Below, piece by piece: positions 1,038 to 33,907 of a DNA stretch of 44,035 nucleotides. The position numbers and the translations under genes were made by a program. How positions within the stretch are numbered: position 1 is the stretch's first letter; every line of letters starts with the position of its first letter. This stretch comes from a phage, in sequence record PZ179884.1. The stretch is one strand, 5' to 3'. The notes beneath the pieces were generated by a model, which did not search any database, had not been told where the DNA came from, and saw nothing but the letters and a program-made list of their open reading frames with translations.

Positions 1038-1066
1038 ATAGTACCCTATTATGTTGGTGTCTGCAA
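1038..1066 (-). promoter_or_regulatory. Class B promoter (minus strand: TTGCAG -17- TACTAT) driving the DnaN-like gene
   Basis: -35/-10 hexamers with 17-nt spacer; spacer and flank share ATAATAGGGTACTATTCA with four other loci. Confidence 0.55.
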
Positions 1067-1340
1067 ACTATTTATTTACCTATTCCAGTTATTCCACTCA
1101 ATTGTAAATGTTGGAATAAACTATTCGAATAGTTGACTTTTCACTGAAAATATGCTAAGCTCCACCTGAGCTTGTGAAGTATGAACAAGCGACCGCGGCG
1201 CGGGCAGGTAACGGAGCGGGACGTAAGTCCTGAGTGTAGTTACGCTGACGCGTTCGGAAGGGCCATACTCTATTGCTTGTGTAAAAAGTAACTGGTTTAC
1301 TGAGATTACGCCGTTTCTATGTTTAAATGATAAGGACTAG

Positions 1341-1368
1341 CGCCCCGCTTTAAGGCGGGGCTTTACTT
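1341..1368 (+). terminator. Terminator-like hairpin in the leader upstream of the spanin genes
   Basis: Stem GCCCCGC / GCGGGGC, 6-nt loop, followed by TTTACTT; lies just before the RBS of the 1386 gene, so may act as an attenuator. Confidence 0.4.
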
Positions 1369-1385
1369 ATCGAGAAAGGAGAAAC

Positions 1386-1772
1386 ATGAATCTTAAAGCA
1401 ACTGTCGTAGCAGGAGCATGTTTCATCATCCTGGCCTACGCACACGGCATCTACCAGTATCGCAGCGGATGGAACGAAGGCCGGGCGAATCTCGTTTCGC
1501 AGCAACAGCAGAAAGCACAGGCTGAGTTAGCGAAGAAAACACAACGGCAGCAGCAGGACGAATCAAAGGCCGCAGCCGCTGACAACGAAGGCAAGACGAA
1601 ATCAGAGGTGATTAACCGTGAAGTCGTTAAGTACATTAAAACGCCTGGCCGCAGCGTGTACACTTTTGACCCTGAGCGCGTGCAGCTCAAGTCCCGCGCC
1701 GTCGCAAACGCCAATTCCATCCCCGGATACGACGATGATGCAGCCGCCGTGCAAACTGGCGCTGCCAAGTAG
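1386..1772 (+). CDS. Rz-like i-spanin (128 aa)
   Basis: N-terminal TM helix, then Gln/charge-rich predicted coiled coil; a lipoprotein ORF is embedded in the +1 frame. Confidence 0.55.
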   Translation: MNLKATVVAGACFIILAYAHGIYQYRSGWNEGRANLVSQQQQKAQAELAKKTQRQQQDESKAAAADNEGKTKSEVINREVVKYIKTPGRSVYTFDPERVQLKSRAVANANSIPGYDDDAAAVQTGAAK

Positions 1773-1881
1773 CGACGCGGACGAGGATTTAGCTATCGAC
1801 GTTCAGAACGCAGAATGTGTACGGCAACTGAGGCTGAAAGTGTTCATGTTGCAGGATTACGTGAGGAATATTCTGGAATAG
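1618..1881 (+). CDS. Rz1-like o-spanin lipoprotein (87 aa), overlapping and extending beyond the i-spanin gene
   Basis: Lipobox LTLSAC at the end of a signal peptide; proline-rich mature region; +1 frame relative to 1386-1772. Confidence 0.5.
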   Translation: MKSLSTLKRLAAACTLLTLSACSSSPAPSQTPIPSPDTTMMQPPCKLALPSSDADEDLAIDVQNAECVRQLRLKVFMLQDYVRNILE

Positions 1882-1963
1882 TTGCCTTGCATGTTGGAAT
1901 AATTTATTCTTGACATGTAAATCCGGGTGGCCCGGATTCCAACGTCCAGGGGACATACTGACT

Positions 1964-2665
1964 ATGAATCGTTTTTTACGTTATCCGTTCCAGGAAGAAG
2001 CTGGAGCAGAAGATAAAGCTGGTGGCGGTGACGCTCCTAAAATGTTCACCGCTGAAGAAGTTCAGGCGCTGATTGAGAAAGAAGTTGCCGGGCTTAAGGC
2101 TAATCAGGAAGCATTGTTGGCGGAGAAGAAAGAAGCCGCTCGCAAAGCAAAAGAGGCCGAAGAAGAACGGCAGCGCGCGCACCAGGAGGCGTTAAAAGCC
2201 GCTGGTAAGATGGATGAGTTCGAAAAGACGATTCGTAGCCAGTACGACCCTGTGTTAGCCGAGAAAGACGGTCGCATCTCCAGAATGGCAGAGCGTATCC
2301 TCGGCAGCGAACGTAAAGCGGTGCTAGGCTCTTTCGCGGGTGACTTTATTACCCCAGAAGCAGTGGACATTCTTGCGCCGTTCGTTAAGACTGAGTTCGA
2401 AGGCGATGATGTGGTTACTAAGTTTGTTGGTGCAGACGGTAACGTAATCACGACTGACCCGGAACAGTTCCGCAAATACCTGCGCGAACACAAGGCGTTT
2501 TCGCATTTGATCAAAGCAAATGCAGCTTCCGGCGGCGGGGCTTCCGGTAGCAAAGGCGGCGGGGCCGCACCAGCGTTTAAAGACATGAGTGAAGCAGAGC
2601 GTTTAGCCCTGTATAAATCGAACCCTGCCGAATTTGAACGGCAACTTAAAGCCCTGAGGAAATAA
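1964..2665 (+). CDS. Scaffolding protein
   Basis: ATG at 1964 in frame with track ORF 1910-2665 (TTG start); Ala/Glu/Lys-rich helical protein immediately upstream of major capsid gene. Confidence 0.55.
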   Translation: MNRFLRYPFQEEAGAEDKAGGGDAPKMFTAEEVQALIEKEVAGLKANQEALLAEKKEAARKAKEAEEERQRAHQEALKAAGKMDEFEKTIRSQYDPVLAEKDGRISRMAERILGSERKAVLGSFAGDFITPEAVDILAPFVKTEFEGDDVVTKFVGADGNVITTDPEQFRKYLREHKAFSHLIKANAASGGGASGSKGGGAAPAFKDMSEAERLALYKSNPAEFERQLKALRK

Positions 2666-2667
2666 TA

Positions 2668-3717
2668 ATGGCAATTACCACTATCGGCGATATCGTAACT
2701 GGCAACATCCCGGTCCTGGCGTCTTATATGACCGAGGACCCGGTAGAAAAAACCGCGTTCTTCCAGTCTGGTATTCTGACCCCGACCCCGTACGCTGCCG
2801 AGATTGCCCGCGGCCCGTCCAACGTCGCTAATATTCCTTTCTGGAAAGCGATTGATACCTCTATCGAGCCGAACTACTCGAACGACGTATACCAGGACAT
2901 CGCCACCCCGCGTAACGTGCAGACCGGCGAGATGATGGCGCGCGTTGCGTACCTGAACGAAGGTTTCGGTCAGGCGGATTTGACCGTTGAACTGACCAGC
3001 CAGAACCCGCTGCAATCCGTAGCGTCACGTCTGGATAACTTCTGGCAGCGTCAGGCACAACGCCGTCTGATTGCTACCGCGCTCGGGCTGTACAATGACA
3101 ACGTAGCCGCTACCGACGCATACCACGAGCAGAATGACATGGTAATCGACGTGTCTGCTACTCTGGGCTTCGATGCGGGCGCGTTCATCGACGCTACCCA
3201 GACTATGGGCGATGCTCTGATGGGCAACGGCGGTGAAGTGCTGGGGGCTATCGCGATGCATAGCTTCGTTTATGCGCAGGCACGTAAGCAGCAGCTTATC
3301 GACTTCATCCGTGACGCGGACAACAACACCATGTTCGCCACCTACCAGGGCTACCGCGTGATTGTTGACGACAGCATGACCGTAGTCGGCACTGGCCCGA
3401 CCCGTAAGTTCATCTCCATCATCTTCGGCAACGGCGCTATCGGTTACGGTGAAGGTTCTCCGTCCAACCCGCTGGAATACGAGCGCGAAGCGTCCCGCGG
3501 CAACGGCGGCGGCGTTGAAACCCTGTGGACCCGTAAGACCTGGTTGCTACATCCGTTTGGCTACAGCTTCACCAGCGCGGTAATCACCGGCAACGGCACC
3601 GAGACTGTAGCCCGCTCTGCTTCCTGGCAGGACCTGGCGAATGCCTCCAACTGGAACCGTGTTGTCGACCGTAAGCATGTGCCTATTGCCTTCCTGGTAA
3701 CTGGTGTAGGGTCTTAA
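2668..3717 (+). CDS. Major capsid protein (349 aa)
   Basis: ORF track; position after scaffold; size and composition typical of HK97-fold capsid; strong terminator follows. Confidence 0.7.
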   Translation: MAITTIGDIVTGNIPVLASYMTEDPVEKTAFFQSGILTPTPYAAEIARGPSNVANIPFWKAIDTSIEPNYSNDVYQDIATPRNVQTGEMMARVAYLNEGFGQADLTVELTSQNPLQSVASRLDNFWQRQAQRRLIATALGLYNDNVAATDAYHEQNDMVIDVSATLGFDAGAFIDATQTMGDALMGNGGEVLGAIAMHSFVYAQARKQQLIDFIRDADNNTMFATYQGYRVIVDDSMTVVGTGPTRKFISIIFGNGAIGYGEGSPSNPLEYEREASRGNGGGVETLWTRKTWLLHPFGYSFTSAVITGNGTETVARSASWQDLANASNWNRVVDRKHVPIAFLVTGVGS

Positions 3718-3734
3718 GGTTAAGCTATAATCGA

Positions 3735-3761
3735 GAGGGACTTCGGTCCCTCTTTTCATTT
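3735..3761 (+). terminator. Rho-independent terminator after major capsid gene
   Basis: Stem GAGGGAC / GTCCCTC, loop TTCG, followed by TTTTCATTT. Confidence 0.7.
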
Positions 3762-3778
3762 ACTAAGAGGATTCCTAA

Positions 3779-4120
3779 ATGGCAGACGTATTGAAGCGAC
3801 GCATCACCGGCGTCTCCGCTGACGCCCCGGGCGCTAAGATCGACATGGCGACTATTTCACCTGCGTCTTTCTCTTCCGCGCTGGCGGCTACTACCGCAGT
3901 GACCATAGGTGAAACTATGACGCTGACCGTAACGGTAGCCGGCGGTCTGGAGCCATATTCTTATCAGTGGTACAAGAACAATAACGCTATCGCCGGGGCT
4001 ACCGCGGCTACCTATGCTAAAGCGTCAACCACTACCGCCGATTCTGGTACGTATAAAGTGGTTGTTCACGATGTGTATGGTAATATTATCTCCAGCAGCA
4101 CCGTAGCAACTGTGTCTTAA
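3779..4120 (+). CDS. Ig-like domain protein, likely capsid decoration (113 aa)
   Basis: Ig signature SYQWYKNN...GTYKVVVHD, paralogous to the C-terminus of the 1-459 product. Confidence 0.55.
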   Translation: MADVLKRRITGVSADAPGAKIDMATISPASFSSALAATTAVTIGETMTLTVTVAGGLEPYSYQWYKNNNAIAGATAATYAKASTTTADSGTYKVVVHDVYGNIISSSTVATVS

Positions 4121-4156
4121 TACAACGGCCCTTCGGGGCCGTAATAAGGAAAGGTC

Positions 4157-4336
4157 ATGGCAGATAATTACGTAATCCGCGAAAAGTATACCCACGTTGA
4201 TATCGTTGACGGACAGGTGATGCCTGTTCGCGGTGTGGTAGAAGCGGATGAACTGGTTGCAACCCAACCAGACAATGAAGAAGCGCACAACAACGGCGGT
4301 GGTGCCAAGCGTCGTCGCCGTAAGTCAGAGGAATAA
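4157..4336 (+). CDS. Small basic protein (59 aa), not in ORF track
   Basis: ATG with AAGGAAAGG RBS; C-terminal GGGAKRRRRK; fills gap between flanking genes. Confidence 0.4.
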   Translation: MADNYVIREKYTHVDIVDGQVMPVRGVVEADELVATQPDNEEAHNNGGGAKRRRRKSEE

Positions 4337-4339
4337 TTT

Positions 4340-4852
4340 ATGCCGCTAATCGTGGAAACGGGGGCAATCGTCCCGAATGCTGATTCGTACATCTCACTAG
4401 CGGACGCCCGCGCGTTAGCGGCTAATTATGGCCTTGAACTACCGGCAGACGATACCGCTGCAGAGGTGGCCTTGCGCAACGGTGCTACTTATGTCGGGCT
4501 TGCAGAACCGCAGATGTGCGGTCGTCGTGTATCCGCTGAACAGTCTCTGGCGTATCCTCGCACTGGTGTAACATTGAATGGTTTCCCCGTATCGAACAAC
4601 GTTATCCCGAAACAGGTAATTCTTGCGCAAGTAATCGCTGCGGCTACATACGGTGCTGGTACTGAGGTGAGGGCTAACTCTGACGGTCGTTCCGTGCAGA
4701 CAGAGCGCGTAGAGGGCGCGGTGACAGTGACCTACTTCAACAACGGCAGCAGTGGCGCTACAACCGCGATTACCGCTGCGGACGACGCCTTACGCCCGTT
4801 ACTGTGCGGTGGTCTTAACAATGGCTTCTCGTTTAACGTGTACCGGGGCTGA
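4340..4852 (+). CDS. Head-tail joining region structural protein (170 aa)
   Basis: ORF track; operon position between capsid and tail genes. Confidence 0.45.
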   Translation: MPLIVETGAIVPNADSYISLADARALAANYGLELPADDTAAEVALRNGATYVGLAEPQMCGRRVSAEQSLAYPRTGVTLNGFPVSNNVIPKQVILAQVIAAATYGAGTEVRANSDGRSVQTERVEGAVTVTYFNNGSSGATTAITAADDALRPLLCGGLNNGFSFNVYRG

Positions 4853-4854
4853 AA

Positions 4855-5469
4855 ATGGCGAAGACTAAAACAGAGATGTTTACCCTTATCGGCGCGAACC
4901 TCCCAGATAACACCGCCGGACTTATTACCCCCGCGAAGCTACGCGAGGTAATGACGCAGATGGCCGACTCGCCTATTTACGCCACTCCGGGTGTTAAAGA
5001 GGTTGAAGTTCTCCGCGCTGCGTCTACCGTAATACAAGCGCCAACAGCGACGGACACGGCGTTGCAGTTAACTTTTGGCTCCGCTAAGGGAAGTGCATCT
5101 GACCCGGTAATGATTAATGCCGCCGGGCTGGTTACGTTCAACGCCGCAGGCAACTACGCCGTTCGCATCAAGTTACAAGCTGGCCGCACAGGGGCCAGCG
5201 GTACATCTATCCTGCTATCACGTATTTTAGTAAACGGCGCTCAGTACGGCTCACCCGCCGCCACGAAACTGGTAAGCGCCGACATAACAATCCCGATTGA
5301 ATCCCGCGTCGTTATTAACCCTGCAGCAGGCCAGACGTTTGCCGTTCAGATTATGCGAGATAGCGCAGGGAGCAACTTCGGCGGTGTATATCCGCAAGCG
5401 GCTACAGTAACCTCATGGGGCACAGCGCCGTCAGCGTTATTGGTTATCCCGAGACTGGAGGCCGCGTAA
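4855..5469 (+). CDS. Head-tail joining region structural protein (204 aa)
   Basis: ORF track; tight coupling to flanking genes. Confidence 0.45.
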   Translation: MAKTKTEMFTLIGANLPDNTAGLITPAKLREVMTQMADSPIYATPGVKEVEVLRAASTVIQAPTATDTALQLTFGSAKGSASDPVMINAAGLVTFNAAGNYAVRIKLQAGRTGASGTSILLSRILVNGAQYGSPAATKLVSADITIPIESRVVINPAAGQTFAVQIMRDSAGSNFGGVYPQAATVTSWGTAPSALLVIPRLEAA

Positions 5470-5600
5470 TGCGTAAAATAATTAATATGTGGATTAATTC
5501 TGATTTTTTGTGGAAGTACGAATTTTTGGTATCAGTGTTTGCGCTGGTATCAACAACAGCTCTAATTATATTTTTAGCGGTTTGCGGGGAGTCAACATGA
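5469..5600 (+). CDS. Small hydrophobic peptide (43 aa), AT-rich insert
   Basis: ATG overlaps upstream stop (TAATG); single predicted TM helix; stop overlaps next ATG (ATGA); local AT-richness differs from neighbours. Confidence 0.35.
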   Translation: MRKIINMWINSDFLWKYEFLVSVFALVSTTALIIFLAVCGEST

Positions 5601-5956
5601 GCACCGCCTTCAGTAAACGTATGCAAGGCGTTGGTACGCGCCTGCTAACCAAATTCGGTAGCACGGTATCTCTAGTCCGCGCTGGCTCGAAAGTGTGGGA
5701 CGAAATTCTCGGTGAGTACGTCTGGTCCGCGGATGAAGTGCTGCCGTTGAAGGCCGTTCCGGTTCCGGTAAACGCAGGACTGGTAAACGGTACGACGATT
5801 CAGGCGGGCGACATGATTGTTAAAGCGGATTGCAGTGTCGTTCCGAAGATGGAAGACAAGGTGCAATTCGGCGGCGAGCAATGGTCTGTCGTGGTCATCG
5901 AGAAGAAGATGGTTAACGATGATGTTGTGGCCTACTTTATTCAGGTGAGAAAATGA
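5597..5956 (+). CDS. Head-tail joining / head closure protein (119 aa)
   Basis: ATG at 5597 in frame with track ORF 5510-5956. Confidence 0.45.
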   Translation: MSTAFSKRMQGVGTRLLTKFGSTVSLVRAGSKVWDEILGEYVWSADEVLPLKAVPVPVNAGLVNGTTIQAGDMIVKADCSVVPKMEDKVQFGGEQWSVVVIEKKMVNDDVVAYFIQVRK

Positions 5957-6453
5957 GTTTCGCGCTTGATGTCTCTAAGTTCGTGGAAAAGGCGAAGAAG
6001 AACCCTGAGAAGGTGATGCGTCAGGTGTCTATCAAGCTGTTTTCCGCTATCATAAAGGCGAGTCCGGTAGATACAGGCCGGTTCCGAATGAACTGGATGG
6101 CCTCTGGCAGTACCCCCGCTTCCGGTACAAGCCGCGGTACTGACCCTAGCGGGGCGAACGCAATAAGTGCCATGGTTTCTACCGTGTCTGGTTTACCCGA
6201 CTGGAGCGAGTTCACCCTGACAAATAATCTGCCGTATGCGGAAGTTATAGAGTTCGGGGGTTACGCTACCGGCTTCCATGGCCCTAAGCGTCCTTCTAAC
6301 TTAGGCTCTAAATTTGTTGGCCCATTGAGGCCGAAAGCGCCCAGCAGAACAACCACAGACGGATATTCCCTTCAGGCTCCGCAAGGTGTTGTCCGGGTTA
6401 ACGTTCAGCGATTCAATAAACTGCTCGAAGAAGAAGCGAGGAAGTATAAATAA
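5953..6453 (+). CDS. HK97 gp10-like neck / tail completion protein
   Basis: Motif VDTGRFRMNW resembles the DTGxLR signature of the HK97 gp10 family (recalled). Confidence 0.5.
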   Translation: MSFALDVSKFVEKAKKNPEKVMRQVSIKLFSAIIKASPVDTGRFRMNWMASGSTPASGTSRGTDPSGANAISAMVSTVSGLPDWSEFTLTNNLPYAEVIEFGGYATGFHGPKRPSNLGSKFVGPLRPKAPSRTTTDGYSLQAPQGVVRVNVQRFNKLLEEEARKYK

Positions 6454-6866: not shown

Positions 6867-6868
6867 AT

Positions 6869-8064: not shown

Positions 8065-8295
8065 TTACTCATCAATGTTACTCCTGTACTCCCGTAACTT
8101 TTCCAGACTTTCAATTGCTTCCGCTAAGTCGGTTCCGGTGTCCTTGTGTCCACGTAAACCCATGCACAATAGCTTCTTCAATGCGTGCTGTAACGCCGGG
8201 TCGCGGATGTCGAAAGCGCGGAGCACATCATAAACGTCTACTGTCATAGTGCTGCCGTGAGTATTTGTCATTGTGCGGTTGTATTTTGAAGTCAT
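8065..8295 (-). CDS. Hypothetical protein (76 aa), last gene of antisense island
   Basis: ORF track; start overlaps stop of upstream gene. Confidence 0.45.
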   Translation of the reverse strand: MTSKYNRTMTNTHGSTMTVDVYDVLRAFDIRDPALQHALKKLLCMGLRGHKDTGTDLAEAIESLEKLREYRSNIDE

Positions 8296-9422
8296 CCCAG
8301 CATCTCCGGTGAAATAGTTAAACGTGCGACCTCACCATATTCGGCGCTATAAGTAATTACGTTTGCACTACGGCCTGACATCCACCCGCCGCGTGAGGCG
8401 TAGGCATCTTTAGCCGCTAAAGTGCGGTGTTGTTCAACAATCATGTTACGGCTTTCTACAATCTTCTGATGGTGCAGGTGGCCTACGTGGGCGTAGCTGT
8501 AAACACTCTCACCGAACGCTTTGCGGAACTTGGCAATCATAACCGGTTCGATAGCATCGAATCGCGCCTTATGCCCGTGGTGAAAGAACAACGTCGTTTT
8601 TCCGTGTTGCACCATCTTGTAAACATCCGGCGACGTATCGACAATCACTCGGCTGTCGTTCGAATATAAAACTGTGAACATTTCAGCCAGCCATACAGAG
8701 CCTACAGGGTCATGGTTCCCCTGTACGATAAGCAAGCGAACATTTTTATGTTTAACCAGTGCCATATCTACAACACGGCGTACCATACGAATCATGTAGC
8801 GGACGAGTTTCTGGTAGCGAGTGTCTGCGTCCAACACGTGACGCGACTCAGGTGTAACGGCATCCAGACTATCGAAGTGCGCGAAATCACCCAGCAGGTT
8901 AATAACTCCTGTTCCTGCATCCGGTGCTTTCTGAAACGCCGCGTCGAACCAACGAGAGAACAGGTCTTCCGCAATCTTTATATCCCAGTCGTCGCCGCTC
9001 TCGTCGGCCCAGGCAAGCATACCGAGATGGAAATCAGATACCGTGTAAAGATTGAGTAGCTTGTCGTCGCGTTTGGCTCGAGTCGCTTTAGCCGGCGCAA
9101 CTGGCGTAATCTCTGACTTCATGCCTTCAATCACGGCTTTCATCAACTCGACCTGACGTTCAGCGTCGGTGTCTGTCTTAACCCATTGCAACTTAGTATT
9201 GCCGAACTCGTCTACCAGAGACGACGTCCCTTTAATCTTGTAGCCGTCTGGGACAAGGTGGCTAACGTCACGCCCGTGGCCTACACCTTTCTTAGCCAGC
9301 TTCGCTTTACGGATACGAATAACTCGGTCTGAGATGCCGTATTTACGGGCGATGTCTACATTCTTCATCCCGGCGTTCAATTCTTCCTGTAACTGTTCGT
9401 CGGTTATTTTCTTCTGAGCCAT
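8292..9422 (-). CDS. N-terminal HTH domain fused to calcineurin-like metallophosphoesterase (376 aa)
   Basis: HTH-like NVDIARKYGISDRVIRIRK; phosphoesterase motifs SDFHLG, GDFAHFD, GNHD, HHGH, GHLHH in canonical order; RBS GAGGAA. Confidence 0.6.
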   Translation of the reverse strand: MAQKKITDEQLQEELNAGMKNVDIARKYGISDRVIRIRKAKLAKKGVGHGRDVSHLVPDGYKIKGTSSLVDEFGNTKLQWVKTDTDAERQVELMKAVIEGMKSEITPVAPAKATRAKRDDKLLNLYTVSDFHLGMLAWADESGDDWDIKIAEDLFSRWFDAAFQKAPDAGTGVINLLGDFAHFDSLDAVTPESRHVLDADTRYQKLVRYMIRMVRRVVDMALVKHKNVRLLIVQGNHDPVGSVWLAEMFTVLYSNDSRVIVDTSPDVYKMVQHGKTTLFFHHGHKARFDAIEPVMIAKFRKAFGESVYSYAHVGHLHHQKIVESRNMIVEQHRTLAAKDAYASRGGWMSGRSANVITYSAEYGEVARLTISPEMLG

Positions 9423-9487: not shown

Positions 9488-9814
9488 CTATTTACTTTCT
9501 GCGCCTATCGCCCACCCTGTCATTACCATTTGCAGACGGGTGGCTGTCAGTAGGCTATAGAAAGCATCTCCGTTTTTCTCTACCGAACGTATCACTGTGT
9601 AGGTTACGGCCTGCGGGGGTAGGCCCGATTTACCAACCTCCACGGCGGCCTCACACTCGCGAACTGTAGAGTCCTTGAACGCCTTTACAATAGTAGGGTC
9701 GGCTTTCTCGAGCACACCAGAAGTCATAAGAACAGATTCACTAAATACCTGTTCGCACGGGGCTCCAAAAGTAGCAAAAGACATAAACCCCAGAGCTAAT
9801 ACTAATTTACGCAT
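9488..9814 (-). CDS. Secreted / periplasmic protein (108 aa)
   Basis: N-terminal signal peptide MRKLVLALGFMSFATFGA; RBS GAGGG 8 nt upstream. Confidence 0.5.
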   Translation of the reverse strand: MRKLVLALGFMSFATFGAPCEQVFSESVLMTSGVLEKADPTIVKAFKDSTVRECEAAVEVGKSGLPPQAVTYTVIRSVEKNGDAFYSLLTATRLQMVMTGWAIGAESK

Positions 9815-9842
9815 AATTATACCCTCAGTAAGTTACTGGTGA

Positions 9843-9871
9843 ATAGTACCCTATTATATTGGGGCGCGCAA
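9843..9871 (-). promoter_or_regulatory. Class B promoter (minus strand: TTGCGC -17- TACTAT) driving the antisense island
   Basis: Spacer CCCCAATATAATAGGG is near-identical to the class B promoter at 32856-32884. Confidence 0.55.
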
Positions 9872-21620: not shown

Positions 21621-22407
21621 TTACGGCCCCCATGAACGCCTTTATAAATTCAGCGGCTACTTGCGGGACGATAGCATTGCCGTAACCGCGCAATCGTCCC
21701 ACTCTGGCGGGTACCCCATTAGCCAGCGGGAATGTGCTGGGTTCAACTGGCCTGAATTTTCCATCCCGGCATCCGAGCCAGTCAGCATCTGACCAGAACC
21801 CGTTAGGCGGATTGGCTGTGTCAGAGATGCCTCTGTTTGCAGATTGTGGCCCCCGTTCCTGCCCTGATGGCCTGCTCCCGCCGAGTTGTTCGCACACGGT
21901 GTTGGCCAGTTGCTGCGCTCCGAAGAACAATCGATTCCTTTTGTGCGGTGCGCCGACGCTACAAGCTGGGAGTACGGCAAACCCGACGGCGTAGTCTTCT
22001 CTTTCCAGGTGAGTTTGTAAATCGCACATCCACGATTTTGCAATTGCTGCCGCAACCTGCTCCCCAAAGATGACTGGAGGGTGGCACTCGCTGATGAGGT
22101 CGAGGAGCACAGGTGCGAGGTGTCTCTGGTCGAACTGTCCGAGTTGCTTTCCTGCCGTGCTAAACGGTTGGCAAGGCGGACTTCCCGTCCATATAGGCGT
22201 ATCTTCAGAAACTCCCGCAAGTCTGAGCGCGAGAGGCCAGCCGCCGATACCCGCGAAAAAATGACACTGGGTGAACCCGTCAAGGTCTTCTGGCTTAACT
22301 TCGGTAATGCTTCTTTCATCTACAACTCCAAAAGGTATGTGACCCTGTTTTATTAATTCACGCAGCCACGCGGCTGCGCCTTTATCCCATTCGTTGTAAT
22401 AGTTCAT
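21613..22407 (-). CDS. Compact DNA cytosine-C5 methyltransferase (264 aa)
   Basis: Motif I FAGIGGW, motif [14 protein letters not shown]-like FGEQV, RxR motif HKRNR, motif X-like GYGNAIV. Confidence 0.65.
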
Positions 22408-22595
22408 TTTGCCACCAGAACTAACTCTTTACGCCCGAACGCCGTAATATTGCCGGTTACATCTTCGATAACCAGTTTACCGTTCGACTCGACGAACACT
22501 GTATCAACGGCAACAGGACGACGGGTCTTAACGTTGAAAATCATGTCACCTGGTACGATGTCACGTGCAGGTTTGCGGTCATATTCGTGTTTCAT
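22404..22595 (-). CDS. Hypothetical protein (63 aa)
   Basis: ORF track; class A promoter directly upstream. Confidence 0.45.
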   Translation of the reverse strand: MKHEYDRKPARDIVPGDMIFNVKTRRPVAVDTVFVESNGKLVIEDVTGNITAFGRKELVLVAK

Positions 22596-22625: not shown

Positions 22626-22910
22626 CTAACTATAATAGTTCGCTATTAGGTCGTCAACCTGTTTGAACGAACCAACGACAAAAACATTTGCACCACGTTT
22701 ACGCATCCGCTCGTGCTCTCGTATCTGGTGCGGGTCTGGCTTCGTGTTTTCGTCTTTCTTAACCTCGACGAACCAGACGATGCCGCCAGGGAGAATTACC
22801 AGCAGGTCGGGAGCGCCGGAACGCCCCTCGTAGGAAAGTTTACGAACGAGGCCCCCAAGGGCCTCAAATCGCTCTTTTGCGTATTTCTGGATGCGGCCCT
22901 CTTTAGTCAT
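22626..22910 (-). CDS. VRR-NUC domain nuclease (95 aa)
   Basis: PDLLVILPGGIVWFVEVKK motif; start taken at internal ATG 22910, coupled (ATGA) to an upstream micro-ORF; track ORF runs to 23126. Confidence 0.55.
   Translation of the reverse strand: MTKEGRIQKYAKERFEALGGLVRKLSYEGRSGAPDLLVILPGGIVWFVEVKKDENTKPDPHQIREHERMRKRGANVFVVGSFKQVDDLIANYYS
22629..22657 (-). promoter_or_regulatory. Class A promoter (minus strand: TTGACG -17- TATAGT)
   Basis: Near-consensus hexamers; spacer ends ...AATAGCGAACTAT like two other loci. Confidence 0.55.
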
Positions 22911-25645: not shown

Positions 25646-26272
25646 TTAGCGGCGGCGACGTTCGCGGCGCGGTGCTTCATCTTCTTCGTCGTCTTCCAGG
25701 TCATTGACGCTCGCAGCGACTTTAGAACCGCCGAACGCTTTGCCTTCGCCAACGTATTTAATCGCCAGCAGGTTAACGCCGAGGACTTTGTATTTCTGGC
25801 TGAACCAGATTTCAACGCTTACGTTAGCTAAGCATCCGCTGTAAACCTGTTCACCTTCAATCTGTTCGCCGTCTACGTTGAAGTCCTGCTCTACCTGAGT
25901 CTCACCTTTTTTAGAGGTTACAATCAGCGGCTGTTTCTGTGCCTTCGCTTTGAAGTAGAAGCCTTCCGGGAAGTCTTCAAACGGATTGTCGCGCTCGGCA
26001 ATGTCTTTAATCGCGCATTTATCCATGTGCTTACCTTCACCGTAGTTGGACTTCATCCATTTCTCGGCAGCGGCTGCGCCTAACGCTTCTTCAACTACAG
26101 CGTAAACGGTGTCGTAGAGTGCATCGATTTGAGCATGGTCAGACGGCAGGATGATAGTCGCGCTGTACTGGCCTTTAGTGATTGAGCCATCATCGTTTTC
26201 ACGGTCTTTTTCACGTTCAAATACGTTAACCCAAGCAGTGTTTACTTTACGCAGATTCAGTTTAATACCCAT
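25646..26272 (-). CDS. Putative ssDNA-binding protein (DUF2815-like)
   Basis: 208 aa; C-terminal tail DLEDDEEDEAPRRERRRR; neighbourhood with DUF2800-like nuclease and polymerase. Confidence 0.45.
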   Translation of the reverse strand: MGIKLNLRKVNTAWVNVFEREKDRENDDGSITKGQYSATIILPSDHAQIDALYDTVYAVVEEALGAAAAEKWMKSNYGEGKHMDKCAIKDIAERDNPFEDFPEGFYFKAKAQKQPLIVTSKKGETQVEQDFNVDGEQIEGEQVYSGCLANVSVEIWFSQKYKVLGVNLLAIKYVGEGKAFGGSKVAASVNDLEDDEEDEAPRRERRRR

Positions 26273-26331: not shown

Positions 26332-26360
26332 ACTATAATAGCTAACTATTCAGGTGTCAA
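26332..26360 (-). promoter_or_regulatory. Class A promoter (minus strand: TTGACA -17- TATAGT)
   Basis: Consensus -35; spacer CCTGAATAGTTAGCTAT. Confidence 0.6.
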
Positions 26361-28146: not shown

Positions 28147-28400
28147 TGGTCAATTAAATGCCGTGTCTTGTGGTCGCAATGTAAGGCCCATCCATACATC
28201 GACTCGAAGACATAAAAGTCGGGCTTGGCGAATGTCGTGCGTTTAATCCGCGACACGTGACGACCTATATCTTTAGGACGCGGTACTTTGCCTAAGTACG
28301 CCATCTCTTCCATCTGGTGTGCACCGGACGGCGCACGCAACAGCCACAACGACTCTGTGTTGTCCCGCCTGTCTACGGCGCGGTAGAGTTGGTAAATCAT
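28128..28400 (-). CDS. Hypothetical protein (90 aa)
   Basis: ORF track. Confidence 0.4.
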   Translation of the reverse strand: MIYQLYRAVDRRDNTESLWLLRAPSGAHQMEEMAYLGKVPRPKDIGRHVSRIKRTTFAKPDFYVFESMYGWALHCDHKTRHLIDQWESRV

Positions 28401-28443
28401 AATTCCGACCCTCAGTTAAAGCGGCCTGAAGGCCGCCAGATAA

Positions 28444-28944: not shown

Positions 28945-28968
28945 TATTTATTCTCCTGTTTATTTGGG

Positions 28969-29196
28969 CTACTCGCCGTCGCCTTCTGTAAGGCTATCGT
29001 CTATTAATTCAAATTTACCGTTTGGGTGTTGAATAGCTTCTTGCCCGCAATGGTCGCAGACAACAAGTTTATCGAACCCATCAAACTCATCCCCTACTAC
29101 GCAAGAAAGTACAAATTTATGTTTTGTGCACACTTCTTGCGGAGCGCCGAAAATTGCTCGAAAACCTTTAGCTATGGCCCCAGTGATTGTGTTCAT
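28969..29196 (-). CDS. Small zinc-ribbon-like protein (75 aa)
   Basis: Cys pairs ...CTKHK...CVVGD and CDHC; first gene after a class A promoter. Confidence 0.45.
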   Translation of the reverse strand: MNTITGAIAKGFRAIFGAPQEVCTKHKFVLSCVVGDEFDGFDKLVVCDHCGQEAIQHPNGKFELIDDSLTEGDGE

Positions 29197-29224
29197 ATCT
29201 GCCCCTCTCGTTTGGTATGGGCTA

Positions 29225-29253
29225 ACTATAATAGCGAACTATTCACATGTCAA
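29225..29253 (-). promoter_or_regulatory. Class A promoter (minus strand: TTGACA -17- TATAGT)
   Basis: Consensus -35; spacer TGTGAATAGTTCGCTAT. Confidence 0.6.
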
Positions 29254-29257
29254 TGGG

Positions 29258-29286
29258 CTTTTCTAAAATAATTAATATGGTACTAT
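29258..29286 (+). promoter_or_regulatory. Divergent plus-strand promoter-like element with TACTAT -10 and weak -35
   Basis: Shares TACTATTCAC with class B; -35 region overlaps the minus-strand class A -35. Confidence 0.3.
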
Positions 29287-29317
29287 TCACATATCAACTG
29301 ACTAAGGAGTAATTGAC

Positions 29318-29533
29318 ATGCAACCATCTGAACTAGGCATCCGTGTAGAACAACGCCGCAAAGAACTCGGCATCTCCCAGCGCCGTTTGGCGGCCCTGAC
29401 CGGCGTTTCCCAGGGCGCGATTAACCAACTGGCACTTGGAGTAACTCAGGACGTCCGCCCGGCAACGCTGTTCAAACTGGCGGAAGTTCTGGAAGTAGAC
29501 GCCAAGTGGCTGGCGTTAGGTGAAGGGGCTTAA
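29318..29533 (+). CDS. Cro/C1-type HTH (XRE family) regulator (71 aa)
   Basis: HTH region ELGISQRRLAALTGVSQGAINQL; RBS AAGGAG. Confidence 0.65.
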   Translation: MQPSELGIRVEQRRKELGISQRRLAALTGVSQGAINQLALGVTQDVRPATLFKLAEVLEVDAKWLALGEGA

Positions 29534-29548
29534 AGCCCCTTTCTTTTT
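29524..29548 (+). terminator. Rho-independent terminator overlapping the stop codon of the HTH gene
   Basis: Stem AGGGGCT / AGCCCCT followed by TTTCTTTTT. Confidence 0.65.
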
Positions 29549-29550
29549 AC

Positions 29551-31773
29551 CTATTCCAAATCCTCCGCTGTCACCACCAGCATCTCATTTGGTTCGTATA
29601 GTGTCTTCGGCCTTAATCTATCCCCTATTCTTTCGGGTATACGATATGTTCTCGGTACTACTTCGCCGTTAGCATCGCAACCAAGCATTAGTTCTCCATC
29701 TTTCAACATTTTATCAAGATGGGTGTTAGTCACAGAGAAGTCACCGGAACGAGCCACTATCTGCTGCTGAGTAAAACCGCGACCTGTGTCATCTGACTGT
29801 TGCAGGTCTTCCAGTGCCGAAAGTATTGACTCCTTCCTTACTTCATCCCTGCCGCGTTTAACTTCTTCCTTTACTTTTTGCTTACCTTCTTTCGTCAACC
29901 CTTCTTCCCGCTCTTTCTCCTCGTCAGTTTTGAACGGCTCGAAGCCCCACGGCATCAGCACAAGTGCCTTATGCGGCTCAGGAAGGTCCAGGTTTACGAT
30001 TGTGCCGTATTCTTCTGTGCTACCCAGGAACTCAACAGCACGGTATTCTTTCGGCGGCGGGGCTTCACGGAACTGTACAGACTCAAGCACCATGCCGACG
30101 GTTTTCTGTTGAGGCCCGTGCTTAAATTTCGAGTGGTATACGTTTATCTGGCGGTCGGTAGCGCGTTCGATTGTCAGCTCGACGTCGACACCTGCATACA
30201 GTGCCCCGCTGCCACGGGCTTTCTTTCCACCCTTCGGCGTATGGTGGACAACGCCCACCGCGGCTTTAGTCGCATCACGTACTTCTTTCAGGATGGCGAT
30301 AACTTTACCCATACCGATTGCCGTGGACGAACTGTTCTCGTCGAACTTATCAATCGTCAGGGCTAGCGTCTGGTTAAGGGTATCAAACGCGACCACCCCA
30401 ATTGGCTCATCGCCAGCAGTTTCACGCATTAACTTAATCAGGCTTTTCAGTTTTCCGACTTCGCCCATATCGATAACATGTACATAATCTTTACCTTCCT
30501 CGCCATATTTAGCCGCTAGCGCATCAATACGTGTACGTGTAGCTGCACCGCCTTCGCCATCGATATAGAAATGGTGGCAACGCTGGGTATCCGCCCCCGC
30601 AAACCGGTACCCGGCGGCGCTCAGGTACATCATCCCCAGCGTATAGAATGATTTGTACGTGCCAGATTCCCCGACGATATCCCATATACAATCTGATGGC
30701 ATGTACCCTTCAACGACGAAATCAGTCTTTACCGGCTCCGGTAACTCGTCCCCCTCTGAGTTCTCGTCGTCTTCCAGGTCGTCGAGGCTGCAAGTTACTG
30801 GGTCCTCGTTCTCTGTGCGGTGTAGTTCTTCAATCTCTTCTTCCGGTAAATCAGGCAGAGCCGCACGAATGCTGTTAATGCTGATAGGTTGCTTGTCTAC
30901 GTTAAGCTCGTCTGGCAGGCCGCACATACGCAGGGCCAAATGCTGTCGGCGGTTAAGCTCGGTGCAAGCGCCGTTGTTTGTATGCTGGCAGACAAAGCGC
31001 ACTTCTTTACCGTCGAGCATTATGCTGGTGGAGCCCTTGCCTGTATGCAGATGTTCGTTAGGGCATGGCACTTCGTACCCGCGCCCGGAAGATAAAGCGT
31101 CAAGGCCAAGCTCGGCTTCGCAGAAGTGTGCTATATCCGCGTTAAGCCCATGCTCATCAGCGGCAAGTGTTTTAGCCTCACGCTTACGCAACCCCATCTC
31201 TTCGGCTTTCTTGATGTACCGCTCGGCACGGATAACACGCCCTTCTGTAACCGTTATCTTCGACTCTTTATGCGGCAGGTAGATAAGGCGGTTGCCGTCT
31301 TCTGTGCAGTGGTCGCGCAACGCTTCGTCTATTTCTAACTCTGCACAAATAGCACGTTGCACCATCCACGCGTCGTTAGAGTTAAACGGCGTGCGAGCTG
31401 GAACCAGAACGCGGAAAGCGTAATCTCCATTTTTACATGCGTGCCGATGCGATGCCGTTGTGTGCAGAATATTGAAGAACGGCGCGTTCTTGAATTTGCG
31501 TGTCAGGTCGCGGTACTGAGTACGGTTGAGATGGTCGAAATCGAACTTAACCACACTGTCTTCCAGGATAGCGTTTTTACGGCGACCACCAACAGGCGCA
31601 ATAGCTTTCTGTTTAATCTTGGCAGCGTCGTACTCTTCCTTAGTCCATGACGGGTCCACGGATAAACGCTTCGATGTATCGCAGACATACTCGACAAACT
31701 GCTCCAGCGGCATTTCACGCGCTACAGGGTTTTTATCGAATGTGTTACGCAGCGTTGCAAAAACAATATTCAT
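29551..31773 (-). CDS. Primase-helicase (N-terminal primase-like domain with zinc-binding motif plus RecA-like ATPase)
   Basis: Walker A GESGTYKS; Cys/His cluster CPNEHLHTGKG...CQHTNNGAC; 740 aa. Confidence 0.6.
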   Translation of the reverse strand: MNIVFATLRNTFDKNPVAREMPLEQFVEYVCDTSKRLSVDPSWTKEEYDAAKIKQKAIAPVGGRRKNAILEDSVVKFDFDHLNRTQYRDLTRKFKNAPFFNILHTTASHRHACKNGDYAFRVLVPARTPFNSNDAWMVQRAICAELEIDEALRDHCTEDGNRLIYLPHKESKITVTEGRVIRAERYIKKAEEMGLRKREAKTLAADEHGLNADIAHFCEAELGLDALSSGRGYEVPCPNEHLHTGKGSTSIMLDGKEVRFVCQHTNNGACTELNRRQHLALRMCGLPDELNVDKQPISINSIRAALPDLPEEEIEELHRTENEDPVTCSLDDLEDDENSEGDELPEPVKTDFVVEGYMPSDCIWDIVGESGTYKSFYTLGMMYLSAAGYRFAGADTQRCHHFYIDGEGGAATRTRIDALAAKYGEEGKDYVHVIDMGEVGKLKSLIKLMRETAGDEPIGVVAFDTLNQTLALTIDKFDENSSSTAIGMGKVIAILKEVRDATKAAVGVVHHTPKGGKKARGSGALYAGVDVELTIERATDRQINVYHSKFKHGPQQKTVGMVLESVQFREAPPPKEYRAVEFLGSTEEYGTIVNLDLPEPHKALVLMPWGFEPFKTDEEKEREEGLTKEGKQKVKEEVKRGRDEVRKESILSALEDLQQSDDTGRGFTQQQIVARSGDFSVTNTHLDKMLKDGELMLGCDANGEVVPRTYRIPERIGDRLRPKTLYEPNEMLVVTAEDLE

Positions 31774-31898
31774 TTCTTTTTCTCCGCACGTTCTAAGGCT
31801 TCCTGCATACGGCGCATTGCGCGGTTCATCTTTACCGGCGCGAAGAAATCGGCGCCGTGTTTCTGTCGGCGCAGCTGTGGAACTATTAACTTCGTCAT
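31770..31898 (-). CDS. Small basic protein (42 aa), not in ORF track
   Basis: Translated by hand; stop overlaps primase ATG (ATGA). Confidence 0.25.
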   Translation of the reverse strand: MTKLIVPQLRRQKHGADFFAPVKMNRAMRRMQEALERAEKKK

Positions 31899-31967
31899 TG
31901 TATAATCCTTGTGCTTACTTTGATGATTTGTGCTTTGGCCCCGACGTTCTTGCGTTGGGGTTTCTTT

Positions 31968-32258
31968 TTACCGTTTAGCCAACCCTTCCAGCAAATTTTT
32001 ATACTCTTCAAAATATTCCTCGACCAAATCATCGCCGAAATAGAAGTCGATATACTCGAGATTATCTCTTACGTTAAGCGATGCCGACATGGTGCTTAGT
32101 TGGCGTAAGCTAATTAGCTTCATTTCTGTTTCTACGCAGAAAGGCCGGTAGGTATCAAGATGGCAAGAGATATTGAAGCATAAAGCGAACTCTCCGGCCA
32201 CGGAGTGAACCATATACACTTCGTTTTCTGCTTTATTGTGGAAAATTACGCCTTTCAT
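31968..32258 (-). CDS. Hypothetical protein (96 aa)
   Basis: ORF track. Confidence 0.4.
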   Translation of the reverse strand: MKGVIFHNKAENEVYMVHSVAGEFALCFNISCHLDTYRPFCVETEMKLISLRQLSTMSASLNVRDNLEYIDFYFGDDLVEEYFEEYKNLLEGLAKR

Positions 32259-32437
32259 TTCACGTTCTCCTTAATCCATGCTTCGACTTTATTACGGTCA
32301 AATGTTCCCGGTAAACGGCGGCCCATAACCTTAATACAGCAGTCAGGGAATTTGCCGCTGCGCAACCAGTTATTAATGGTCTGACGTGTCACCCCGATAC
32401 GTTCAGCTACTTCATTCTGCGTCATATAATGCGACAT
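32255..32437 (-). CDS. AlpA/Xis-like HTH regulator (61 aa)
   Basis: Start at ATG 32437 with AGGAGA RBS (track ORF runs to 32551); pattern IGVTRQTINNWLRSGKFP...VEAWI. Confidence 0.55.
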   Translation of the reverse strand: MSHYMTQNEVAERIGVTRQTINNWLRSGKFPDCCIKVMGRRLPGTFDRNKVEAWIKENVK

Positions 32438-32468
32438 TTTTATATCTCCTGTTTGTTTGGTGAAACTG

Positions 32469-32497
32469 AGTATAGGATAGCGGGAATGTAAAAGCAA
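32469..32497 (-). promoter_or_regulatory. Leftward early promoter (minus strand: TTGCTT -17- TATACT)
   Basis: Hexamers with 17-nt spacer upstream of the AlpA-like gene. Confidence 0.45.
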
Positions 32498-32534
32498 CCA
32501 ATCTCTGTAATATTTAATCTTTACAAAAATGTTA

Positions 32535-32564
32535 TTGAAAGTTCTTGACACATGTTTGTATAAT
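32535..32564 (+). promoter_or_regulatory. Rightward promoter TTGAAA -18- TATAAT
   Basis: Consensus -10 preceded by TG; AT-rich upstream region. Confidence 0.5.
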
Positions 32565-32591
32565 GGTTTTGGGACTTGTATATATTACGGA

Positions 32592-32623
32592 GTTGACGAA
32601 CCCTCCCCGAGGGATTCGTCAAC
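32592..32623. promoter_or_regulatory. Long imperfect palindrome GTTGACGAACCCTC-CCC-GAGGG-A-TTCGTCAAC
   Basis: 9-bp outer and 5-bp inner inverted repeats in the divergent early control region. Confidence 0.5.
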
Positions 32624-32763
32624 CCCTCCCAGACAGCTGAGATGCTTGCCTTGGGGTTTAAGGATAAGTGTATCTAAATCTCATTTAAAGAAGTAACCCG
32701 CTGAAATATCTACTGTTTCTTAATGTGCCGTAGATTCGCAACCGTAAAAATGTAACGATTATT

Positions 32764-32790
32764 GGGCAGGCTTAAGCCTGCCCTTTAGTT
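32764..32790 (+). terminator. Rho-independent terminator
   Basis: Stem GGGCAGGC / GCCTGCCC, loop TTAA, followed by TTTAGTT. Confidence 0.6.
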
Positions 32791-32855
32791 ACCAAGTAAT
32801 AAGAATAAAGGCACAACCCTCCCCGAAGAATCACAACGGCAACGTAACTATTCTC

Positions 32856-32884
32856 TTGCACACCCCAATATAATAGGATACTAT
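32856..32884 (+). promoter_or_regulatory. Class B promoter (TTGCAC -17- TACTAT) for the early-right operon
   Basis: Spacer ACCCCAATATAATAGGA; downstream TCACTTATCGAAACGAG leader motif. Confidence 0.6.
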
Positions 32885-32918
32885 TCACTTATCGAAACGA
32901 GACAGAGGAGTGGTGGTT

Positions 32919-33110
32919 ATGTTTAAGAAGGGTCAGTTGATTAAAACGATGTACGGTAGCTTAGGTATTATTGAAAAGAAATCGGCAGTGTACCGAAGTT
33001 CTTATGTCGTTAGCTTACTCAGGGAGCACGGGTTAAGTTCCGCGGCGTATTACCAAGAGTATGAAATGAAACTAATTGGCAACAATTTTAAATTCAAAGG
33101 GGTGAAGTGA
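32919..33110 (+). CDS. Early protein (63 aa)
   Basis: ATG 32919 with GAGGAG RBS (track start 32910 is GTG). Confidence 0.5.
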   Translation: MFKKGQLIKTMYGSLGIIEKKSAVYRSSYVVSLLREHGLSSAAYYQEYEMKLIGNNFKFKGVK

Positions 33111-33325
33111 TGGAAGAATTAATTTGTATTGAATCCCGCCAGGATGTGCAGGATTGGTTTGTGAAAGGTAACAAATATTCGTCAGGAGTATATTACGACG
33201 GCCGTCGATACGTTTTAGATGAAGACGGTGATGAATGGGATTTAGAGGACACTGTGGGCGAGACTTTAACCGTTAGTTTTCTTCAATGTTGTTTCCGCAT
33301 CATTCACAACGGCGCCGAATCATGA
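33110..33325 (+). CDS. Early protein (71 aa), acidic
   Basis: ATG overlaps upstream stop (track start 33107). Confidence 0.45.
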   Translation: MEELICIESRQDVQDWFVKGNKYSSGVYYDGRRYVLDEDGDEWDLEDTVGETLTVSFLQCCFRIIHNGAES

Positions 33326-33582
33326 TGCTCGTGCCGACGACTCTGAGGGAGGTTGCCGTGAATAATATTTTAATTGTGGGGGTTGATATGAGTCCGTATA
33401 ACCAATTCCGCCTTGAGCGTCTACGTCGCGGATTAAGTAACGCTAAATTAGCTCTCGATATATGGGAGAGTACGCCATATTTTTCCTCGAAGGCCTGGTA
33501 TGTAGCTCGCGCTAAAGCGTCCGTACAGTACCGCGAGTATAAGTTAAACAGTTTCCTTAAACACCACGGGGTAGCGTTATGA
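33322..33582 (+). CDS. Early protein (86 aa; alternative GTG start at 33358 has RBS GAGGGAGG)
   Basis: In frame with track ORF 33286-33582; ATGA coupling. Confidence 0.4.
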   Translation: MMLVPTTLREVAVNNILIVGVDMSPYNQFRLERLRRGLSNAKLALDIWESTPYFSSKAWYVARAKASVQYREYKLNSFLKHHGVAL

Positions 33583-33740
33583 GAGAAGCATTCGAACGAT
33601 GGGCCGTCGTAGAGGGTCTGCCGGTTAACAAGGGTTTAAAGAAAGAGTACCTGAACGTTAAGACGCGTCTCGCGTGGCGGGCGTGGAAAGCTGGTGTGCA
33701 GTTCCGTGACGGTGTAACAGGTGGGGTAACAGGTCAATAG
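33579..33740 (+). CDS. Early protein (53 aa), not in ORF track
   Basis: Translated by hand; ATGA overlap with upstream gene; terminator follows. Confidence 0.35.
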   Translation: MREAFERWAVVEGLPVNKGLKKEYLNVKTRLAWRAWKAGVQFRDGVTGGVTGQ

Positions 33741-33763
33741 TTTGGGATTTTACTGAGTGACTT

Positions 33764-33795
33764 ACGCTGCTACACAGCAGCGTATCATTTTTCTC
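33764..33795 (+). terminator. Rho-independent terminator
   Basis: Stem ACGCTGCT / AGCAGCGT followed by a U-rich tract ATCATTTTTCTCATTTTT. Confidence 0.55.
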
Positions 33796-33878
33796 ATTTT
33801 TGTTCTATTTCACCAAACGCAACAATCGAAGCGACTATTGCAGGAGATGCAACAATATAACACACCAATAAAATTTAC

Positions 33879-33907
33879 TTGCACACTGGGATAGAATAGG
33901 CTACTAT
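33879..33907 (+). promoter_or_regulatory. Class B promoter (TTGCAC -17- TACTAT)
   Basis: Spacer ACTGGGATAGAATAGGC; downstream TCATTTACACAAACGAG leader motif. Confidence 0.6.

Follow-up and report, generated by a model that had tools for sequence, protein, structure and literature searches.

A 14-bp palindrome over the early promoters of a Kagunavirus as a candidate operator for a Cro-like HTH_3 protein

We analyzed a 44,035-nt stretch of phage DNA (sequence record PZ179884.1, called the window below), in which a promoter family with near-identical spacers, named class B, had been noticed from the sequence alone. The conserved spacer and the -10 element of these promoters together make up a 14-bp palindrome, AATAG-N4-CTATT, of which the spacer is one half. 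Judged by their sequence, the class B sites serve a lytic Kagunavirus as early promoters of the sigma-70 type, and the palindrome is very probably an operator for a dimeric phage protein. As the binder we propose, with moderate confidence, the 71-aa HTH_3 protein encoded at 29318-29533(+). An early-promoter operator bound by this Cro-like HTH_3 protein acting as a repressor is probably the best explanation of the observations as a whole.

AATAG-N4-CTATT is the most over-represented palindrome in the window, with seven perfect copies against 0.03 expected, and a search for AATAGNNNNCTATTCA on both strands with up to two mismatches gave 22 matches against 2.4 expected. The perfect cores start at 1037, 9842, 22634, 26337, 29230, 32872 and 33895, and a core with one mismatch starts at 29274. 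The extended form of the operator is (T/G)AATAG-N4-CTATT(C/A), the centres of its half-sites are 9 bp apart, and AATAGGATACTATT is an operator-bearing sequence of the family. All eight sites overlap the region between the -35 and -10 hexamers. Every site is located upstream of a purine-rich ribosome-binding site and a start codon on the same strand, with ~27-75 nt from palindrome to start.

Exactly four matches to TTGC(A/G)(C/G)-N17-TACTAT were found, at 1038-1066(-), 9843-9871(-), 32856-32884(+) and 33879-33907(+), which are the four strong sites of the sequence-only reading. When up to one mismatch to TTGCRS-N17-TACTAT was allowed, shuffled sequences had 0.68 matches on average and none of 100 shuffles reached four. 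The weaker copy at 29258-29286(+), with a -10 TACTAT and a poor -35 CTTTTC, was recovered as well. The spacer ends also agree with the earlier description, being ATAATAGGG, ATAATAGGG and ATAATAGGA at three sites and AGAATAGGC at 33879-33907. What did not hold was the limitation of the family to class B, for the palindrome is also present in three minus-strand promoters of the form TTGACR-17-TATAGT, named class A here.

The palindrome takes different positions in these promoters. In class B it begins 10 nt past the -35 and spans ~-20 to -6, so that its right arm supplies the -10 TACTAT. In class A it begins 4 nt past the -35 and occupies the spacer at ~-25 to -12, and its last T opens the -10. 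A third register is found at the orthologue of the 9842 site in the Jerseyvirus SE2, 7 nt past a TTGCAT -35. The hexamers themselves are 17 bp apart at all strong sites (four TTGCRS/TACTAT and three TTGACR/TATAGT), and all seven pairs keep the A at position 2 and the T at position 6 of the -10. Because one symmetric element occurs in three registers and always over the core promoter, we regard the palindrome as a module independent of the sigma-70 hexamers. Overlapping bidirectional -10 elements were ruled out as the source of the symmetry, since the arms lie 9 bp apart instead of being shifted by 1 bp, and a plausible promoter in the reverse direction (TCGATA-17-TATATT) is present only at the 32872 site.

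The same pattern might arise with no regulator at all, if a single good sigma-70 promoter had spread by descent and recombination as a cassette in paralogous copies and its AT-rich -10 were symmetric by chance. Such -10 elements are inherently near-symmetric, conservation of the class B promoters reaches well past the palindrome (-45 to +30), these promoters act like portable cassettes at mosaic junctions, and sites 9843 and 32856 have CCCCAATATAATAGG.TACTATTCAC in common. However, the palindrome is common to two promoter types with unrelated flanks and different registers, and seven copies where 0.03 are expected are too many for -10 symmetry alone. Sigma-70 requires no particular bases in the spacer, but the left arm of the palindrome, which is located there, is invariant and the centre variable. 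Moreover, the Cornellviruses changed both arms together, as described below. Chance symmetry in a spreading cassette is thus quite unlikely.

An 8-kb query from the window matched genomes of Kagunavirus (Guernseyvirinae, siphophages of E. coli), with Bas76 and 590B as best matches at ~96% identity over ~80% of the query. Phages of the Kagunavirus type have been described as strictly lytic (PMC9787291; also the BASEL expansion preprint). The comparison set consisted of 80 IMG/VR loci around homologues of the HTH_3 protein, to which the complete genomes of SE2 (L002), VSiA (Cornellvirus, L003), SE1 and LM02P1 (L091) were added. SE1 belongs to Guernseyvirinae with no genus assigned, and its HTH_3 protein is of the Cornell type.

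Among AT-rich palindromes, AATAG-N4-CTATT comes first in 37 of 37 Kagunavirus loci and first or second in Jerseyvirus loci, and it is absent from Cornell-type loci. The motif is present in related phages: in ~40 Kagunavirus genomes its arms are constant and the central 4 nt variable, and it is kept at orthologous Jerseyvirus promoters, SE2 carrying it at the corresponding promoters. Among 45 unique sequences of the 29230 region both arms are invariant, the centre is CGAA, TGAA, CTAA, CTAG, CAAA or CGAG, and variation is also seen immediately outside the right arm; the same central dip in conservation is seen at 22634 and 26337. The half-site is (T/G)AATAG over 75 unique Kagunavirus sites and strictly TAATAG over 18 Jerseyvirus sites.

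The Cornellviruses possess TATTAG-N4-CTAATA instead, a single-base change in both arms. With up to one mismatch allowed, this form occurs three and two times in two complete Cornell-type genomes and never in Kaguna- or Jersey-type genomes, and TAATAG-N4-CTATTA occurs seven times in the window, six times in SE2 and never in Cornellviruses. Three Cornell-type sites in VSiA precede genes, and at 37322 a -10, TAATAT, is made up by the right arm. Since sigma-70 does not read the left arm and both arms are changed in the Cornellviruses, a dimeric phage-encoded binder is indicated. The sequence-only reading had offered two interpretations of the conservation beyond the hexamers, and one of them, a shared regulator site, gains from the symmetric 5-N4-5 layout, the three registers, the invariant arms around a variable centre, and the paired change in the Cornellviruses.

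A host DNA-binding protein could also read the palindrome, and the phage might exploit it for early timing, but nothing specific speaks for this reading. The half-site differs between Jerseyvirus and Cornellvirus, which both infect Salmonella, and is the same in Kagunavirus and Jerseyvirus despite their different hosts. To our knowledge, the motif matches no known E. coli regulator consensus, the FNR, CRP and ArgR boxes differing in sequence or spacing. We judge a host binder very unlikely.

The other earlier interpretation, a phage-specific recognition element, found no support if taken to mean promoters read by an RNA polymerase or sigma-like factor that the phage encodes. This is how the motif was read in the paper on the Kagunavirus fBC-Eco01, where PHIRE returned the consensus tgAATAGTa-ccTATTat-T in seven copies, listed as 'phage promoters' and assigned to a phage-encoded RNA polymerase (PMC9825357). 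That consensus represents the motif described here, as the reverse complement of atAATAGG-TACTATTca. Seven PHIRE sites are likewise listed for Golestan, another Kagunavirus (PMC7203180). The ~20 conserved bp do resemble a T7-type promoter in length. Unlike T7/SP6-type promoters, the conserved block is palindromic, lies inside sigma-70-like hexamers, always 17 bp apart, and is used on both strands, a layout that fits sigma-70. A search of the ten largest proteins of the window revealed no RNA polymerase domain, the only family-A polymerase being a DNA polymerase, and the annotations of Bas76, SE2 and VSiA list neither an RNA polymerase nor a sigma factor. Because none is present in the ten largest proteins or the annotated relatives, we consider the published reading wrong, and a dedicated polymerase or sigma-like factor extremely improbable. 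A variant with a small unrecognised sigma-modifying phage protein is possible. The fBC-Eco01 report mentions neither the palindromic operator character nor a link to the HTH_3 gene. The literature on promoters and repressors of Guernseyvirinae that we found consists of genome announcements, with nothing on the palindrome, on its link to HTH_3 or on start-site mapping.

The candidate binder is a protein of the XRE/Cro type, and its gene is a single-gene unit, for which a terminator-like site lies at 29522-29542. It matches Pfam HTH_3 with E=3.9e-13 (49.7 bits against a cut-off of 23), and the best phmmer matches among solved structures are 434 Cro, which also has 71 aa (E=8.5e-6), the 434 repressor and P22 C2. 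The AlphaFold2 model shows five helices (pLDDT 77), and its top Foldseek match is again 434 Cro (2cro; 40% identity, TM 0.70-0.75). The protein consists of the DNA-binding domain alone, without a C-terminal oligomerisation or S24 domain. 434 Cro, the 434 repressor and P22 C2 bind palindromes of 14-18 bp as dimers, and the P22 consensus TTAAG-N4-CTTAA has the same 5-N4-5 geometry as AATAG-N4-CTATT.

The promoter region of the HTH_3 gene is flanked by operators, the perfect one at 29230 and the one-mismatch one at 29274. From start to start they are 44-45 bp apart in 38 Kagunavirus loci and 43 bp in one more, and 11 Jerseyvirus loci have 55 bp (in SE2, L002 8814-8882); this difference of about one helical turn hints at a helical-phasing constraint between the two. 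Palindromes are also found near distant HTH_3 homologues: ATTAG-N4-CTAAT lies 55-92 bp upstream of those in L057, L071 and L072, and TAAAG-N4-CTTTA is located near those in L058 and L060. In L057 the homologue makes up the N-terminal domain of a larger protein, of 230 aa, whose length and layout are those of a cI-type repressor; between the gene of this protein and a divergent small HTH gene there are three operators. The recognition helix of the Kagunavirus protein, GVSQGAINQL, is the same in 37 of 38 loci; the exception, L029, has a single G-to-S change.

Prophage repressors with the same recognition helix were sought in a large protein database, which gave close Kagunavirus relatives only, and in representative bacterial genomes, where six loci were obtained, one of them a Jerseyvirus-like contig within a bacterial assembly and the rest too distant to inform. 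In L085 (NZ_JACVEL010000022.1, from an assembly of Taishania pollutisoli, Bacteroidota) the HTH_3 protein is identical to that of SE2 and the upstream region is of the Jerseyvirus type. This locus probably reflects contamination of the assembly by a Salmonella phage.

Several observations weigh against the assignment of the operator to the HTH_3 protein. The Kaguna- and Jerseyvirus proteins share only 48-49% identity, and their recognition helices are not alike (SQGAINQ and SQSLITH), although the AATAG core is common to both, and the Jersey helix is more like TQSAISH of the Cornellviruses, whose operator differs; the covariation of protein and operator is therefore not clean. In favour of covariation, the Cornellvirus proteins (41-43% identical) go with a half-site changed in both arms, and the distant homologues with other 5-N4-5 palindromes. 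The Cornellvirus palindromes are few, with 2-3 strong sites per genome. In Jerseyvirus, the sites flanking the HTH_3 gene are among its weakest (one and two mismatches). The only RNA-sequencing study of a Kagunavirus, that of the K1B4 transcriptome (PMC12645636), is coarse, lacks 5'-end mapping and offers nothing usable on single genes or start sites. Finally, the distribution of another DNA-binding protein, HTH_17, coincides exactly with that of the AATAG version of the operator, since it is 82% identical between Kaguna- and Jerseyviruses and absent from Cornellviruses.

The HTH_17 (excisionase/MerR-like) gene is located at 32255-32437(-) and encodes ~60 aa in an open reading frame that extends to 32551; besides Pfam HTH_17, the product matches the PHROGs family 'excisionase and transcriptional regulator'. 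If this protein bound the operator, the HTH_3 protein would have some other target. Its homologues are confined to phages of the Kaguna and Jersey types (443 records) and are ~82% identical between the two genera that have AATAG-N4-CTATT in common, and the Cornellviruses are without both the protein and the AATAG operator; the HTH_3 protein has diverged far more between Kaguna and Jersey (48%). On the other hand, three alleles of the HTH_17 protein occur among Kagunaviruses that differ in the putative recognition helix (GVTRQTINNW, GVTRRTLNNW and GVS(P/T)MTLNRW), and the operators are unchanged; LM02P1, L009 and L027, which have the last allele, keep 5-9 perfect sites. Such alleles suggest a diversifying DNA target of HTH_17's own. 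Furthermore, WTAG-N4-CTAW palindromes adjoin HTH_3 homologues in phages without HTH_17, and no HTH_17 homologue was found in L057, L058, L060, L071 or L072. No good operator was found at the presumed promoter region of the HTH_17 gene itself, and HTH_17 proteins of the Xis/AlpA type usually bind direct repeats, not short palindromes. Binding of the operator by HTH_17 is consequently regarded as unlikely, and the HTH_3 protein is retained as the preferred candidate.

From the sites and their statistics, their place in the promoters and their pattern of conservation, together with the family and predicted fold of the HTH_3 protein, we infer binding by this protein and a negative sign of regulation. 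A dimer of the 434-Cro-like protein would bind the palindrome with one monomer per arm and, covering -25 to -12 or -20 to -6, would exclude the host RNA polymerase. As the protein accumulates, the whole early regulon would be turned down, in a Cro-like shut-off within a lytic phage. Since the operator at the HTH_3 gene's own promoter is the weakest, with one mismatch, this promoter would be repressed last. Besides the regulator gene itself, the regulated set would take in the genes for replication and recombination, two DNA-metabolism cassettes lying antisense in the late region, and the small early genes.

Sigma-70 promoters overlaid by a palindromic operator for a Cro/cI-type repressor make up a known type of system, which in the present case appears dispersed over the genome of a lytic phage. 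The likeness to 434 Cro, the 434 repressor and P22 C2-Cro extends to a 71-aa HTH_3 protein with five predicted helices, to a 14-bp palindrome with conserved arms and a presumably uncontacted centre, and to the arrangement of the operators, which overlap core promoters and of which two flank the regulator gene between divergent promoters. Unlike 434 and P22, the phage here has single operators over at least eight promoters, including some in the late region, and not a cluster at one immunity region. It is also reported as strictly lytic (PMC9787291), and it lacks an integrase, a tripartite OR/OL and a partner cI bearing an oligomerisation or S24 domain. The picture differs accordingly from a lambdoid immunity switch: the protein is a DNA-binding domain of 71 aa and not a full-length cI, no integrase is annotated in the relatives Bas76, SE2 and VSiA, and the operators are single and dispersed.

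In its proposed role the HTH_3 protein resembles lambda Cro, a small early protein that accumulates and lowers early promoters including its own, but the lambda Cro fold is winged and beta-rich and serves two operator clusters, whereas the regulon here is dispersed. One repressor with many short genome-wide sites near or inside early promoters is known from P1 C1, from the phiC31 c repressor with its conserved inverted repeats (CIRs), and from L5 gp71 with its 'stoperators'. These phages are temperate and maintain lysogeny, the sites of P1 and L5 are asymmetric, and the proteins are unrelated or much larger. The p4 protein of phi29 offers a parallel in a virulent phage, as a small DNA-binding protein that represses early promoters at promoter inverted repeats. 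It is of an unrelated fold, however, binds upstream sites, works with p6 and activates a late promoter; no activation is evident here.

The genes behind the eight promoters look, by their predicted products, like an early DNA-metabolism regulon. Two of the class B promoters read antisense units. The 1038 promoter (-35 TTGCAG, -10 TACTAT; palindrome AATAGGGTACTATT at 1037-1050) precedes the gene 488-1009(-), which matches a PHROGs family annotated as RusA-like resolvase, and its cassette is kept in 26 loci while the flanks diverge. Behind the 9843 promoter (TTGCGC, TACTAT; palindrome at 9842-9855) are located 9488-9814(-), encoding a small protein without known function, and 8292-9422(-), which matches a PHROGs family annotated as DNA repair exonuclease; orthologues of this site are found in LM02P1 (L091 position 13907) and SE2 (L002 position 33752). 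The sequence-only reading had tied these two antisense units, as morons, to the early-right operon. The tie is supported by the common palindrome, but the label is loose, since the PHROGs matches are to DNA-metabolism families; the units seem better described as early DNA-metabolism genes placed in the late region.

The other two strong class B promoters drive rightward small early genes. The one at 32856 (TTGCAC, TACTAT; palindrome at 32872-32885) is the first promoter of the rightward small-early-gene operon and is conserved in 39 loci. The one at 33879 (TTGCAC, TACTAT; palindrome at 33895-33908) belongs to a promoter-plus-leader cassette conserved in a 30-locus alignment, with a downstream gene slot that differs between phages. 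The weak class B copy before the HTH_3 gene has its one-mismatch palindrome, AATATGGTACTATT, at 29274-29287. Its Jerseyvirus orthologue has a proper -35 (TTGCAC/TTGCGT), placed on an extra 10 bp, and the copy in the window is thus best seen as a decayed class B promoter, in line with the sequence-only reading. TTCACA-16-TAAAAT at 29242-29269 is an alternative promoter for the HTH_3 gene.

The three class A promoters face leftward. The one at 29225-29253(-) (TTGACA-17-TATAGT; perfect palindrome in the spacer at 29230-29243) is divergent from the HTH_3 gene and serves a leftward operon that starts with a 75-aa gene (28969-29196) and includes a DUF2800/PD-(D/E)XK nuclease. The promoter at 26332-26360(-) (TTGACA-17-TATAGT; palindrome at 26337-26350) is followed by the gene of the single-stranded DNA-binding protein, 25646-26272(-), and downstream genes, the DNA polymerase among those lying downstream. 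The third, at 22629-22657(-) (TTGACG-17-TATAGT; palindrome at 22634-22647), leads into 22404-22595(-) and then the genes for a C5-methylase and an SNF2-type helicase.

Two further elements are of uncertain membership in the regulon. The partial palindrome AATAGTTGACTTTT at 1128-1141(+) overlaps the -35 TTGACT of a plus-strand promoter-like site, and ACTAGTTGACTATT at 37365-37378(+) overlaps the -35 of TTGACT-17-TATATT (37370-37398). The latter stands just after a GC-rich hairpin with a T-run, ahead of the small genes located before the terminase. Elements like it are found in all three genera, although the half-site is switched in the Cornellviruses. In elements of the AATAGTTGAC type (these two together with L002 15716 and L003 40827), a half-palindrome is fused to a TTGACT/TTGCAT -35, and they may be a late-promoter signature.

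The leaders behind the class B promoters end as the sequence-only reading had described, in CGAAACGAG at 1018-1026(-) and 32893-32901(+) and in ACAAACGAG at 33916-33924(+); the motif is absent at the 9843 site. Its core AAACGAG (often ATCGAAACGAGA) is located ~10-16 nt downstream of the -10, just before the ribosome-binding site, at four of the eight promoters, namely at 1020-1026(-), 29207-29213(-), 32895-32901(+) and 33918-33924(+), and at a Jerseyvirus orthologue in SE2 (L002, near 12990). It was ruled out as an element enriched across the genome, with six copies in the window against 6.8 expected, and is concentrated by position only, four of the six copies being in leaders of the promoter family. 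AAACGAG could represent an initial transcribed region, a leader element or a translation signal.

Promoter and leader together form cassettes of ~75 bp (33860-33935 and 1010-1070) that are conserved across phages in the alignments of L005-L051, while the next gene differs. More than 12 different start sequences follow the 33895 cassette, and its upstream flank is of several types. Placed at mosaic junctions, the cassettes may act as recombination linkers for accessory early genes. A wider reading, which we put forward only tentatively, is that in lytic Guernseyvirinae a 'headless' cI/Cro-type domain governs the early genes genome-wide, its operator residing in a portable ~75-bp cassette at mosaic junctions that recruits whatever genes are recombined behind it and doubles as a recombination linker driving the turnover of accessory slots. 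With the operator inside such a cassette, any gene recombined behind it would join the early regulon, including the antisense cassettes in the late structural module.

Kaguna- and Jerseyviruses are widely isolated candidates for therapy and biocontrol and have been proposed as a small engineering chassis. If one repressor and a 14-bp operator do govern essentially all early promoters, matched repressible promoters and a single protein to tune would be available in these phages, and the co-regulation of the antisense DNA-metabolism genes of the late region with the replication module would be explained. The analysis also corrects the published annotation of the motif as promoters of a phage RNA polymerase. 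In addition, a 'repressor' annotation in these genomes need not mean lysogeny, which bears on safety calls.

Non-coding features were also found. A near-consensus promoter, TTGAAA-18-TATAAT, with 11 of 12 matches, is located at 32535-32564(+), and a strong terminator-like hairpin follows ~200 nt on, at 32764-32783. Rfam and tRNA scans of the window gave no matches, and the region 32535-32792 has no convincing open reading frame between promoter and hairpin. A 222-nt stretch of this region folds far better than shuffled sequences (-72.4 kcal/mol, z = -4.5), which makes 32535-32792 a candidate for a phage non-coding RNA or a structured regulatory or origin region. G-rich 'GGGGAG/CCCCTC' repeats and hairpins fill long non-coding regions beside the helicase-primase gene in VSiA (L003 37006-37295) and, in weaker form, at ~32590-32640 of the window, and these repeats might mark a replication origin.

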